Virus record (IMG/VR): IMGVR_UViG_2778261630_000008
Coordinates: 1-36,187 of that record
Origin: a virus
Lineage: Duplodnaviria; Heunggongvirae; Uroviricota; Caudoviricetes
Length of the DNA: 36,187 bases
Reading direction: 5' to 3' (one strand)
The first letter of the stretch is position 1, and the number at the start of each line of letters is the position of its first letter. Made by a program: the position numbers and the translations under genes. The notes beneath the pieces were generated by a model. That model was given only the letters and a program-made list of their open reading frames with translations, did not search any database and was not told the origin of the DNA. Positions 24,104 through 29,114 of the stretch are shown piece by piece.

Positions 24104-25297
24104 GTGGCAAGAACGACACGCCCCCTGACCAACACAGAAGTGCTGCGCGCAAAAGCGTTAGAAAAGGATCTTACATTGCATGATGGCGATGGTCTTTTTC
24201 TTCTCGTTAAAACGAACGGTAAGAAGTTATGGCGTTTCCGTTATCAACGTCCGACAACAAAGCAGCGGACAATGATGGGGCTAGGTGCCTTCCCAGCCAT
24301 ATCGCTTGCAGATGCCAGGAGATTAAAAGCTGATTATCTTTCATTATTAGCCAATGGAATTGATCCGCAAATTCAAGCGAAAGTGGCAGAGGAACAGCAA
24401 CAAATCGCGCTTGACAGTATTTTTTCAACAGTCGCCGCTAACTGGTTTCTGCTCAAAAGCAAAAGCGTTACCCCTGATTACGCAAAAGACATTTGGCGTT
24501 CACTTGAGAAAGACGTATTCCCCACTATCGGTGAGATCCCCGTTCAGAAGATCAAAGCCCGAACATTAATTGAAGCTCTTGAGTCCGTCAAAGCTCGAGG
24601 GGCGCTAGAGACCGTTCGTCGACTGGTGCAACGCATTAACGAGATAATGATTTATGCGGTTAACACCGGTTTGATTGATGCAAATCCAGCATCAGGTGTT
24701 GGTATGGCATTTGAGAAACCTAAAAAGAAAAATATGCCAACACTACGCCCAGAGGAATTGCCTAATCTGATGCATTCATTAACAATGTCAAATCTATCTG
24801 TCTCTACTCGATGTCTCATTGAATGGCAACTCCTAACTCTTGTCCGCCCTTCTGAAGCTTCAGGCACTCAATGGGCTGAGATCGATTTAGATGCGAAACT
24901 CTGGATAATTCCAGCTGAAAGAATGAAAGCAAAACGAGAACACATTGTTCCTTTGTCCCCCCAAGCTTTAGACATTTTGAATATAATGAAACCCATCAGT
25001 GCTCATCGTACACATGTTTTTCCTAGCAGGAGTGACCCCTTAAAACCAATGAATAGCCAAACGGCAAATGCCGCATTAAAGCGAATTGGCTTCGCTGGCA
25101 AACTAGTAGCCCATGGTCTACGTTCTATTGCAAGCACCGCCTTAAACGAACGTGGTTACAATCCTGATGTTATAGAAGCAGCTCTTGCTCATAGCGATAA
25201 AAACGAAGTACGTCGCGCTTATAATCGCTCGGTTTATTTAGAAAAACGTAAGCAACTAATGAATGATTGGGGGCAAATTGTGCACCCCCAATCATAA
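24104..25297 (+). CDS. int: P4-family tyrosine integrase (IntA-like)
   Basis: 397 aa, GTG start with AAGGAG RBS; strong resemblance to CP4-57 IntA / P4 Int as recalled; ~185 bp downstream of the ssrA core. Confidence 0.9.
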   Translation: MARTTRPLTNTEVLRAKALEKDLTLHDGDGLFLLVKTNGKKLWRFRYQRPTTKQRTMMGLGAFPAISLADARRLKADYLSLLANGIDPQIQAKVAEEQQQIALDSIFSTVAANWFLLKSKSVTPDYAKDIWRSLEKDVFPTIGEIPVQKIKARTLIEALESVKARGALETVRRLVQRINEIMIYAVNTGLIDANPASGVGMAFEKPKKKNMPTLRPEELPNLMHSLTMSNLSVSTRCLIEWQLLTLVRPSEASGTQWAEIDLDAKLWIIPAERMKAKREHIVPLSPQALDILNIMKPISAHRTHVFPSRSDPLKPMNSQTANAALKRIGFAGKLVAHGLRSIASTALNERGYNPDVIEAALAHSDKNEVRRAYNRSVYLEKRKQLMNDWGQIVHPQS

Positions 25298-25346: not shown

Positions 25347-26931
25347 TTATGTAGATTTAACATCAAGATGTTCTCCACAGTATCCGATAATTATTTTACG
25401 TTTACTTCTATCAACCCAAAAGTGGATTCTTATAGTTTCAGACTTGGAGCGGGCTGTTCCTATACCAACGTGTTGGAACATCTTTATTTTTTGACCATTA
25501 TAGTCAAACTCTCTCATTTTAGATAATGTAGCAGATCGCTCTACCGTCTCTGATTCATTTGCTGAATAAGCATCACCAAGAATATCTTTGGCCTTATTAT
25601 CTCCATTTTCAAGATACTCAAGAAGATATTCTGTACAAAGTTTATATAATAAATAAATCAATCTATGATTGTGTTTGAATTTCGATGAGTTCCTCGCTGA
25701 AGAAAATGCTGATTTAAGAATCTCAACATTATTAGGGATTAGGATTTCTAATAAACTCAAAACGGACTCAGGGTTTAACCTATTGCTAATTAAAGATATT
25801 ATCTTTTCAACATCAACATCACCATCAGTAGCTTTTCCATGGTATTTCCTAATATCGTATTTTAACCTTTCTAAGTCTACTTCTATTTTATTTTTTTCAA
25901 AGACAACTGCATCATGCTTTGCATCCAATTCCTCAATCCTTTTTAAATAATCAAGCTCTAATTCTTCACTAGCAGCCTTAAACTCCTCAAACTCTAAGAG
26001 GACTTCATCGAGCAAAGCTTCATACTGAGCACCATCTTTTAACTCATTTAATCTCTGCCTAAAAGAAATATTATCATCACGCTGTCTTTTGGCACGAACA
26101 TTAGCTGGTGATAAATGCAACTTTTTATTATAGCCATTAAAAGCATGCGTTATTACTGATAATATATAATTATTAATAGGAACATTACCCGCTTTAATTT
26201 CATCAACTTGCTTCGGGAGAAAAAGTTTTGTTCCTATATACCCTGACTTATTCATTGGGTAAATAATATTTATTGCCCCCCCCCCAAGATGAATAGTGTC
26301 TTCCAAGTAATCGTTCCATTTCCCAAGAGTCCATTTTACCACTTGTTGCAACAACCTGAGCAAGCCCAATAAGTTGCTCCTGTAGTTTTTCAGGTATAAC
26401 AGGAAATCCATCATTACCTTCACTAATAAAAACTAGCGGGTAGGTCCTGTCATCCCTAGAAATTTCATGCATAAGATACTGAAAGTCGCCATACTGACTT
26501 TTAATATAATCCACTTTCTGGCCGATAACATCCAGATCGAATACACAATTCCGTTTCAAATATGATACCAGAGATGGACGAGTAGCAATTGGTTTTGCAT
26601 CAACCATAGTGCTAACATCACTTATTTCTAACAATATAGATATAAACGTGCTTCCTTTTTCACGTCTAATTCCAATTTCTGTAATCCATTGTCTACCGCT
26701 CACATTCCTATCAGGATGAGTGTACATTATGGAATATATTTTAGGTTCCATTCTATCAGCCGTGTAGGTTCTAACATAGGCTCGCTCTAAATTCCAATCA
26801 CGCCGCGAAAGTAGCTCATCTGTTGATAGGCGAATATTAGCAACCCTATTAAGCCAACCACACACAGAACGCACTACGCTAAAAAAACTATCTTCACCGA
26901 TGCAATTAAACGAATTAACATAAACTAACAC
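25347..26931 (-). CDS. satellite hotspot gene, ~528 aa if read through a G10 tract; as written split into 227-aa and 358-aa overlapping frames; function unknown
   Basis: GTG 26931 with AAAGGAGA RBS; frame A (26931..26248) and frame B (26423..25347) overlap by 176 bp with the homopolymer inside the overlap; loss of one G fuses them; AT-rich; between int and cos. Confidence 0.55.
26276..26285. repeat. homopolymeric tract, C10 on plus strand (G10 on coding strand)
   Basis: Ten consecutive C at 26276..26285, at the junction of the two frames of the hotspot gene. Confidence 0.95.
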
Positions 26932-27202: not shown

Positions 27203-27775
27203 TTACACAGACTGACGTGATGCCAGTTGCGCACTTTTACGCGAAAAAATCATGTTCTGCGCAGGGGTGAATTTTTCACGGCTGTCATCCACCGAAGCCG
27301 CGTCAGGCCTGAATCCGATGGCCGTTAAAATGTCGCTATCCTGTGCGGAATAATTAATTTTTTCCCCCTTCGCAAGCCAGGACAGAAGGGCTTCACGCAG
27401 GGCATCTGTGGTACGCTGTATGGCACAGTTTCGGGCAATGGCCGTCAGCTCACTGTAGCCCATCAGCTCCGGTGCCAGTGCCGCCGCCAGTGCTGTACCG
27501 TGCTGCTGCATAAAATCATTCAGCCGGTCGCGGATGCTGATGTGCTGAACGGCTTCATGCGAACGAATATAACGACCGGCGGCCTGATTCACCTGCCATT
27601 TTCTGACTTCGATAATATTGCGTAATTCGTCCAGGCGGCTGACGTTTCTGCCTTCTCCTGACAGAAGCCGCAGATATTCCTGTTCGGCCGCTGCCAGCTC
27701 ATTTTTGCGTTGCAGCCATGCTGCTTTGTTATTCTGACAGGTGTCAAAGGCCTGCTGTAAGGCTGTGCTTTCCAT
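27203..27775 (-). CDS. psu: polarity suppression protein Psu (capsid decoration / Rho antagonist)
   Basis: 190 aa, the P4 Psu length; last gene of the sid-delta-psu operon next to cos. Confidence 0.9.
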   Translation of the reverse strand: MESTALQQAFDTCQNNKAAWLQRKNELAAAEQEYLRLLSGEGRNVSRLDELRNIIEVRKWQVNQAAGRYIRSHEAVQHISIRDRLNDFMQQHGTALAAALAPELMGYSELTAIARNCAIQRTTDALREALLSWLAKGEKINYSAQDSDILTAIGFRPDAASVDDSREKFTPAQNMIFSRKSAQLASRQSV

Positions 27776-27848: not shown

Positions 27849-28349
27849 TCATTCCAGACGCAGCGAATATGATTGTGTTTTTAACCGTACTGGCGGCAGT
27901 TCCTGTTTTTCATGCAGGCGTTCTGCCAGTTCGTCCGGCGTGACCGGGCGGACAATGAAGCGGTTGATGGTCTGAAGCGTTTTAAACACCAGACCACAGC
28001 CCGGATCCGTGCACACATAAAAACGCTCGGTGACTTCCTGAGACAGACGCCGCGATGTTCTTGACAGTGCAAGGCCTTTACATCTCCGACAACAATATCC
28101 GGTAACAAGCATTCTTTTCGGGCGTTTCATACTGCCGGAGGCCGACGTCAGTGAATCGAGGTATCTCTGTTTGCCTGAAATGTATTCCATTCCTGAATCT
28201 TTACAGTCAGAGAAAAAGCTTTCACTCGCTTCAAATGTCGCAGAGCAATAAATATTCCGGCACTGTGCAATCATTATCTTGGTGCCATCGTCCATGAAAT
28301 GTGCGCGACGGGTGTGAGCAACATGTCCACACGACGGGCAGTAAATCAT
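27849..28349 (-). CDS. delta: Delta late-gene transactivator (duplicated Ogr-type zinc finger)
   Basis: 166 aa with two CxxC...CxxC units (CPSCGH... and CCRRCKG...); start overlaps sid stop. Confidence 0.9.
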   Translation of the reverse strand: MIYCPSCGHVAHTRRAHFMDDGTKIMIAQCRNIYCSATFEASESFFSDCKDSGMEYISGKQRYLDSLTSASGSMKRPKRMLVTGYCCRRCKGLALSRTSRRLSQEVTERFYVCTDPGCGLVFKTLQTINRFIVRPVTPDELAERLHEKQELPPVRLKTQSYSLRLE

Positions 28350-29080
28350 GACAGCAGTCCTCTGGCCTTAAGCTCTGCTCCCTGCTGGTCTATTTTGTCC
28401 TGCCACACCTTGCGCTGTGCCGGTGTGCCTGCCACCTCATAATCCATGTGCGGGAGTGTTGCCGCTGACAGTCCGGTCAGCCGGAGAACCGGCTCGCCGG
28501 TGAGGCTGATTTGCATCTGTTTTATTTTCTGTTCCAGCGATGATTTCACCTGCTGCATGACAGCTTTATCGGGTGCGACGTAGCCCTGATGGCCGGTGGT
28601 GTTGGCGAGCGGATTTTCCTGTACCAGGATGCTCAGATGCATTGCCCGGACAAGCGCCTCACAGGTTTCATTCAGGGCGTGTTCCAGCTCATTCTCTGCA
28701 TACAGACTCAGAAGGTGATGATGTGCCTTCCGGTAGGCGGTGGCCGTGCTGTCACACGCCCCTTTCAGGCGTTCACGTTCAAAATTCAGCACCACGGCCA
28801 GATTGTCATATTCCTGTACCAGCTCCCGGCGTGCCACGCGCTCAATGTGGCGCTGTTTCAGCTCGTCGCTCAGGACACCTCCGGCTGCACGAAAGGCCGT
28901 GCGCCAGTCGTCAGCGTCGTTTCCGTCGGCCTGCGCCAGCGCATTTTTTTCCTGCTCTGCCCGTTCAATAGCCGTGACGGTCTCATCCATCAGGCGGGCG
29001 TTCTCAAGATGAGCGACTCTGGCCTTTTCCAGTTGTGCCAGCGCGGGTTGCAGATATTCAGGGATGGTGTTGTCAGACAT
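28346..29080 (-). CDS. sid: Sid external scaffold (capsid size determination)
   Basis: ORF-track start 29098 is GTG; ATG 29080 with GAGGAG RBS gives 244 aa, the P4 Sid length. Confidence 0.85.
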   Translation of the reverse strand: MSDNTIPEYLQPALAQLEKARVAHLENARLMDETVTAIERAEQEKNALAQADGNDADDWRTAFRAAGGVLSDELKQRHIERVARRELVQEYDNLAVVLNFERERLKGACDSTATAYRKAHHHLLSLYAENELEHALNETCEALVRAMHLSILVQENPLANTTGHQGYVAPDKAVMQQVKSSLEQKIKQMQISLTGEPVLRLTGLSAATLPHMDYEVAGTPAQRKVWQDKIDQQGAELKARGLLS

Positions 29081-29114
29081 TTTCCGGCTCCTCGTCACTT
29101 CAGGTTAAGAAAAT

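Follow-up and report, generated by a model that had tools for sequence, protein, structure and literature searches.

The window analysed here, a 36,187-nucleotide stretch of viral DNA, contains a P4-like satellite whose cargo gene is split between two reading frames at a run of ten guanines. Judged by its sequence, this copy appears to be an OFF (G10) allele, separated by a single slip from an ON allele that is the same in every other respect. We consider it probable that the run is a slipped-strand mutational hotspot, which creates heritable ON (G9, G12) and OFF (G7, G8, G10, G11) alleles of a satellite-borne candidate defence gene. The observations behind this reading are the tract and its frame arithmetic, the polymorphism in tract length and its recurrence on different haplotypes, the integrity of the OFF alleles, and the absence of such behaviour from tract-less homologues.

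According to the proposed mechanism, the hotspot would sit in the conserved W-G-G-A motif of the thioredoxin-like domain of a HEC-07-family protein, where replication slips of one base would shift the tract among lengths from G7 to G12. G9 and G12 would yield the full-length protein (ON), and G7, G8, G10 and G11 would cut it short after about 218 residues (OFF). Given the homology to the HEC-07 representative that has been tested, the ON alleles would be expected to defend, and the OFF alleles would be devoid of defence activity. E. coli is mismatch-repair proficient. We infer slippage as the mechanism from the indel rate in E. coli, which climbs exponentially with run length (PMC8510543).

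A homopolymer at the junction of two reading frames

Two minus-strand open reading frames (ORFs; 26931..26248 and 26423..25347) are offset by one base, and their overlap of 176 nt contains the tract, in agreement with the initial annotation, which had placed a C10 run within the overlap of two frames. The run is the sole G/C run of at least eight bases within the 36-kb window. The features of the gene are as follows.

26276..26285, minus strand: G10 homopolymer (C10 on the plus strand); in the G9 allele it reads TGG GGG GGG GCA, encoding W216-G217-G218-A219
25347..26931, minus strand: whole frameshifted gene, a HEC-07-family single-gene candidate anti-phage defence; 527 aa if G9
26931..26248, minus strand: N-terminal ORF of the OFF (G10) allele, a fragment of 227 aa whose end reads ...SSWGGGNKYYLPNE, with the stop codon TAA at 26250-26248
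25347..26275, minus strand: C-terminal 309 codons in the other frame, whose longest ORF reaches 26423; they encode the remaining thioredoxin-like domain, a long coiled coil and the C-terminal domain (RelE-like according to the HEC-07 authors)
26253..26255, minus strand: ATG encoding Met226 (C-terminal frame), located 2 nt ahead of the stop codon of the G10 frame, ATGAATAA
25803..25823, minus strand: in-frame 6-bp repeat (GAT GTT)x2, encoding G-DV-DV-EK; copy number 1, 2 or 3 across genomes

Deleting one base (G9) gives a single ORF of 527 aa, which reads ...SS-W-G-G-A-INIIYP... around the tract, and adding two bases (G12) gives 528 aa with one extra Gly. The expectation that either length would restore a single frame is thus borne out by computation, and proteins of both lengths occur in public genomes. 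The G7, G8, G10 and G11 alleles yield fragments of 219-227 aa, and the reading frame toggles with tract length.

The gene has a GC content of 35% versus 50% for the window, and under a first-order model a gene of 35% GC is expected to contain about 1e-5 to 2e-4 runs of at least ten bases; runs of this length appeared in three of 100 dinucleotide-preserving shuffles of the whole window. As the peptide W-G-G-A is conserved, the run requires two consecutive GGG codons, and GGG accounts for only 2 of the 26 other Gly codons of the gene.

A split gene might still be expressed if the G10 allele gave rise to a product through transcriptional slippage, +1 ribosomal frameshifting, or re-initiation as two polypeptides. 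The run is in principle long enough for some slippage of polymerase or ribosome, which on runs is established mainly for A/T tracts, and the position of the Met226 ATG just ahead of the G10-frame stop makes re-initiation a speculative source of a separate C-terminal polypeptide. However, the in-frame G9 form is the majority and presumed normal state, most homologues have no run, and the split would lose the conserved AINIIYP strand. No significant frameshift-stimulating RNA structure was found downstream of the tract (z = -1.09), and the locus does not combine an out-of-frame arrangement as the conserved norm with a stimulatory element, as programmed frameshifting would. We therefore regard recoding as very improbable.

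The split gene occupies the cargo slot of a P4-like satellite

The gene lies between the integrase and psu genes of a P4-like satellite, in the psu-int cargo slot. The neighbouring features are as follows.

24104..25297, plus strand: P4-type satellite integrase, one border of the cargo hotspot
27203..27775, minus strand: psu (polarity suppression protein), the other border of the hotspot
27849-28349: delta, beyond psu
28346-29098: sid-like gene, after delta

In complete genomes the equivalent loci go on with alpA-like, Icd/Ash-like, derepression and primase genes, and most adjoin ssrA. The psu-int slot is variable even where Psu is constant: contigs encoding exactly the Psu of the window (L161-L170) hold six different cargos, namely AAA_15 with DUF4435, Fic, a DNA methylase with HTH, a ResIII helicase, a Pua-like metallophosphatase with a HAD hydrolase, and the HEC-07-like gene. 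The pair of AAA_15 ATPase and DUF4435 in this slot we take to be PARIS-like. The behaviour of the slot as a defence hotspot of P4-like satellites has been described (Rousset et al. 2022, PMC9122126).

The first part of the window (1-23800) is a P2-like prophage that directly adjoins the satellite integrase, placing helper and satellite in tandem. Its ORFs include capsid, terminase, portal-sized, CI repressor, CII-family regulator, Dam-type methylase and site-specific integrase genes. The tandem layout of prophage and satellite is also found in L152 (NLTD01000012.1), and RM10740 has a phage integrase upstream as well. A link between the OFF state and an adjacent prophage was considered and dropped, the independent cases being too few.

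A candidate defence protein of the HEC-07 type

The PADLOC profile PDLC04161 for HEC-07 matches the protein almost end to end, with residues 12-525 aligned to positions 36-551 of the 553-position profile (E 9.8e-29). Weaker matches were obtained to three other HEC-07 profiles, and NsnC profiles, likewise from PADLOC, match the last 150 residues. A Pfam search of the protein yielded sub-threshold noise only, a PDB sequence search with the family profile yielded only coiled-coil noise from the central helix, and searching a phage collection with the gene gave no match.

Structural assignments were made on an AlphaFold2 (AF2) model of an 88%-identical homologue (pLDDT 85.8). This model comprises a beta-rich N-terminal domain, an alpha/beta domain at about residues 120-250, a helix of about 115 residues and an alpha+beta C-terminal domain. 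The middle domain is thioredoxin-like and does not contain a CxxC motif. The tract-encoded W216-G217-G218-A219 directly precedes the strand 220-223. In two family alignments (A1, 26 sequences; A2, 36 sequences) W216, G218, A219 and N221 are invariant, and I220 is invariant in A1 and near-invariant in A2; a His near the C-terminus is invariant in the family alignments. On the model, truncation at the tract would take away a conserved strand.

Profile match and thioredoxin-like domain together place the protein in the HEC-07 family, as far as sequence can assign it. HEC-07 is described as a single-gene candidate with AdoMetDC-like, thioredoxin-like and RelE-like domains and as one of the seven out of nine HEC systems that reduce plaquing, in its case of some phages (bioRxiv 10.1101/2024.01.29.577857). 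The gene product is accordingly a candidate abortive-infection protein of the HEC-07 type, and its gene is not of the surface or restriction kind.

A separate branch of homologues of about 504 aa occurs in Vibrio, Aeromonas, Photobacterium and Pseudoalteromonas (P0083-P0104; P0087, P0088, P0095, P0098). It has the first ~330 residues in common with the other homologues, including W-D-G-A-I/V-N, and an unrelated C-terminal domain, which looks like the swap of an effector on a common N-terminal module.

Tract length varies across E. coli and Salmonella

Ten complete E. coli genomes carry the gene at 99.7% identity or more, with one to three SNPs outside the tract. The sole indel among them is the tract itself, which is G8 in two (RM10740 and N51), G9 in seven and G10 in one (HCM-26C-1). 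The seven G9 genomes are annotated as encoding one 527-aa protein, and equivalent split loci are annotated by PGAP as two hypothetical proteins.

To this we added exact-protein look-ups in a collection of 15 billion proteins. The resulting contig numbers are raw counts that include clonal oversampling.

G9 full length, three alleles: 261, 152 and 18 contigs
Salmonella 529-aa form, in frame (G9): 35 + 8 contigs
G12 full length (WGGGA): 1 contig
G8 fragment (…WGGQ, then stop): 327 + 18 contigs
G10 fragment: 13 contigs
G7 fragment: 5 contigs
G11 fragment: 1 contig

Raw totals are about 475 in-frame (~55%) versus about 364 out-of-frame (~45%) contigs, stemming from NCBI isolate assemblies, Logan assemblies and metagenomes. 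The identical G10 N-terminal fragment of the window is present on other contigs, and no G5, G6, G13 or G14 forms were found in these exact look-ups. Loci for comparison at the DNA level were sampled via the integrase, N-terminal fragment and Psu of the window itself; scanning viral contigs for the pattern of tract plus flanks returned one locus, which was already known.

The Asp-Val repeat (GAT GTT) of the gene also varies in copy number, with one copy in CP028768 and L153, two in most E. coli and three in the Salmonella forms (GDVDVDVEK); P0004 has the variant GDGDVDVEK. Many Salmonella Derby and Agona contigs stop inside the gene, and their proteins are flagged as partial (P0008, P0010, P0012-P0015, P0023, P0025), which could reflect the collapse of repeats from multiple satellites or assembly trouble near repeats.

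Length changes recur on several haplotypes

Haplotypes were compared over 5.1-5.25 kb of satellite DNA from which the tract had been removed. Haplotype A comprises eight loci with 0 SNPs among them, RM10740 being G8 and the other seven G9. Haplotype B, one SNP from A, includes three G8 loci (N51, KZ269830, ABHFXZ01) and one G9 locus (FDAARGOS_1058). L154 (G10), which has a different chromosomal integration site, is one SNP from L056 (G9), and HCM-26C-1 (G10) is on another separate haplotype. The window itself (G10) shows 0 differences to L166 (G9) at the aligned positions over 5.1 kb, and its protein allele (M61, I252) also occurs with G8 (P0009, P0017). Over a longer distance, N51 (G8) and FDAARGOS_1058 (G9) are separated by 6 SNPs across 41.6 kb. 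In total, length changes have occurred repeatedly, on at least six satellite haplotypes, and at least nine independent changes are required in the E. coli/Salmonella gene family if G7, G11 and G12 are counted.

Because the tract has changed within haplotypes without a single substitution over 5 kb, its mutation rate must exceed the summed substitution rate of thousands of sites. The near-identical copies with tracts from G7 to G12, recurring on several haplotypes, indicate a hypermutable tract that switches the gene between an intact and a split form. The comparison with other genomes that had been proposed as a check of the initial annotation thus came out positive. Its suggestion of a hypermutable ON/OFF switch holds as regards recurrent length changes that alternate between an intact and a split gene; its parallel to switches of surface and restriction genes does not extend to this gene, which is neither.

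Long-read assemblies tend to err at homopolymers. Some of the complete genomes are of this type, and a further run (A7/A8) differs between N51 and FDAARGOS_1058. Against an artefact stand the 345 contigs with the G8 fragment and the 13 with the G10 fragment, which come from many independent projects and sources, and the grouping of the states by haplotype instead of a random scatter. Since the sources span isolate assemblies, Logan and metagenomes, a platform artefact is ruled out as a general explanation, and we hold an artefact at the homopolymer to be extremely improbable. The A7/A8 difference itself (position 28826 of L150 versus L151) lies downstream of the satellite primase gene; it is another homopolymer polymorphism or else a sequencing error in one of the two assemblies.

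The window copy could also be an ordinary decaying pseudogene, a piece of dead cargo for which the tract is merely the site of the break. The gene is indeed split in the window and annotated as two hypothetical proteins in equivalent genomes, and OFF alleles persist in clones. The same break, however, has independent origins on several haplotypes and also in a second genus, and there is an in-frame counterpart of identical haplotype. Moreover, all 13 OFF loci that were covered over the whole gene give an uninterrupted ORF of 525 or 527 aa if the run is set back to G9, and none of the 13 carries a second disabling mutation. The OFF alleles are thus one slip from ON and show no secondary decay, which makes simple decay improbable and fits a mutational hotspot that generates ON and OFF alleles.

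OFF states are common to several isolates within one haplotype and are stably inherited in clones, from which it follows that switching is not fast on epidemiological time-scales. For none of the observed length events could an OFF-to-ON direction be inferred.

Homologues beyond E. coli and Salmonella

The motif was read in about 80 homologous loci, drawn from genomes, metagenomes and viral contigs. In all but two families the G run at the motif measures 2-5 bases, the two exceptions being the E. coli/Salmonella type and the Pantoea type, in which the tract is uninterrupted in every locus read. The ~70 other loci use mixed Gly codons at the motif and are almost always intact. The relatives at 88% identity (Enterobacter/Cronobacter) have TGG GGT GGT, the Klebsiella relatives at 78% (on ~110-kb plasmids) have TGG GGA GGA, and a Dickeya homologue has W-S-G at the motif. 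The Klebsiella gene is intact in nine of nine full-length plasmid matches, and members of the Klebsiella and Enterobacter/Cronobacter clusters are mostly 529 aa long. The initial annotation had held that uniform tract length in the population, together with homologues lacking any homopolymer at this position, would speak against a switch; length heterogeneity was found between genomes, and most homologues do lack the homopolymer there.

The Pantoea lineage (73% amino acid identity) is satellite-borne as well, in a psu-int slot beside smpB, and has the identical TGG GGG GGG (G9), with G8 (IMG/VR locus L147; split pair P0111/P0112) and G10 (P0119) variants. E. coli and Pantoea are only 36% identical at 4-fold sites, and a neighbour-joining tree places the tract-less genes of Enterobacter and Klebsiella between them. 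With 4-fold sites saturated and tract-less lineages in between, the tract must have been gained twice or else preserved in the face of synonymous decay. Recombination was rejected as the origin of the tract in Pantoea, the nucleotide identity at the tract (78%) being in the range of the neighbouring segments (75-79%).

Phage-defence genes are thought to be costly and to have a fast turnover. The tract might be an evolved contingency locus, at which second-order selection keeps an uninterrupted G9 tract in satellite-carrying populations and so hedges between an active, possibly costly abortive-infection defence of the RNase type and a silent copy that is recoverable by one slip; we regard this as possible, if rather unlikely. 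On the same reading, which we entertain only tentatively, the G9 tract would have been gained or retained independently in the E. coli/Salmonella and the Pantoea satellite lineages. Several observations point in this direction. Two satellite-borne lineages with saturated synonymous sites have the same TGG GGG GGG, with GGT GGT and GGA GGA lineages between them; the OFF alleles are free of secondary decay; the in-frame G12 allele is most simply reached by stepwise slips through OFF states; and ON and OFF forms are both common, in a near-even mix. In addition, defence pseudogenes are otherwise reported to be rare in P4 hotspots, with systems being swapped before inactivation (NAR 2026, PMC13586616), and a G tract in pglX phase-varies the Pgl phage defence of Streptomyces (PMC4365076). 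However, given the E. coli case, the chance of GGG GGG in one of the ~20 other W-G-G lineages is about 0.17 by a codon-usage estimate, which is not significant, and we therefore rejected the shared tract as proof of selection and take it as suggestive only. Conservation of the tract among the E. coli alleles carries no weight because these are 99.8% identical, and the clonal inheritance of OFF states speaks against rapid switching. A mutational hotspot that produces heritable ON and OFF alleles, with or without such selection, is the reading we retain.

Two homologues merit description in their own right. The Klebsiella homologue (L046-L049, H19-H27) is on ~110-kb non-mobilizable replicons, with gp32-, 5'-3' exonuclease- and RecA-like genes and a Rep3 initiator nearby; such a replicon looks like a phage-plasmid, that is, another type of mobile element with the same defence gene. 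In Shewanella sp. Isolate7 (L015, 3001-5099) the match takes up about 2.1 kb for 526 residues, pointing to an insertion of some 500 nt within the gene.

Significance and comparison with known systems

The cargo gene persists as a near-even mix of in-frame and out-of-frame alleles that differ only in the length of one G run. If the run is a switch, simple-repeat phase variation would reach a candidate abortive-infection gene that satellites carry in E. coli, Salmonella and Pantoea. If the switch is a selected one, no earlier defence gene with simple-repeat phase variation would be known from a satellite, nor from enterobacteria proficient in mismatch repair. As public strains include both states, a switch of this kind would be a tractable system for the cost-benefit of such defences. 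Even if the run is a mere mutational hotspot, annotation pipelines for defence systems miss or split the gene in ~45% of genomes. A limited literature search retrieved no description of a homopolymer switch, either for P4-like satellites or for HEC-07.

The locus resembles the contingency loci of Haemophilus, Neisseria, Campylobacter and Helicobacter in its uninterrupted homopolymer within an ORF, its toggling of the frame by single bases and its polymorphism among close relatives; we found a mutable uninterrupted homopolymer, frame toggling and recurrent polymorphism among close isolates. The organisms in which such loci are classical have many of them, often have weak or absent mismatch repair, and show documented switching within cultures. 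Here, in contrast, there is a single locus in mismatch-repair-proficient hosts, and polymorphism is documented between isolates only.

Mycobacterium tuberculosis has no canonical mismatch repair. Its homopolymer frameshifts, such as those in glpK, are described as reversible, as located at a short G/C run and as known mostly from population genomics (PMC10334774; bioRxiv 10.1101/717272). The gene of the window is similar to glpK in that both are ordinary genes apart from a short G/C run with frameshift variants, whereas glpK is a metabolic gene with a drug-tolerance phenotype and the gene of the window a candidate defence gene of a mobile element.

As to the gene family, the window copy agrees with HEC-07 (Hma-embedded candidate 07; Payne et al., bioRxiv 10.1101/2024.01.29.577857) in the full-length profile match, the thioredoxin-like middle, the invariant His close to the C-terminus and the single-gene organization. 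It differs in location: the tested representative lies inside Hma systems, the window copy in a P4-like satellite hotspot. The sections of the preprint covered here mention neither a homopolymer nor phase variation. As to the location, the gene fills exactly the slot of the P4 psu-int hotspot (Rousset et al. 2022, PMC9122126; NAR 2026, PMC13586616), but unlike the rarely inactivated cargo of the latter report (PMC13586616) it is out of frame in ~45% of the sampled contigs.

[quoted passage not shown] Both have a guanine homopolymer in the coding sequence of a phage-defence gene, which is a candidate one here. The two differ in that pglX encodes a methyltransferase of a multi-gene system and the gene of the window a single, unrelated HEC-07-type protein; in that pglX is chromosomal in a high-GC actinomycete and the window gene, at 35% GC, belongs to a phage satellite in Enterobacteriaceae; and in that the rate was measured for Pgl, whereas the window gene is known from genome sequences alone. 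Phage-defence genes toggled by a homopolymer are thus already known, and the present locus would place such a gene on a phage satellite in enterobacteria.
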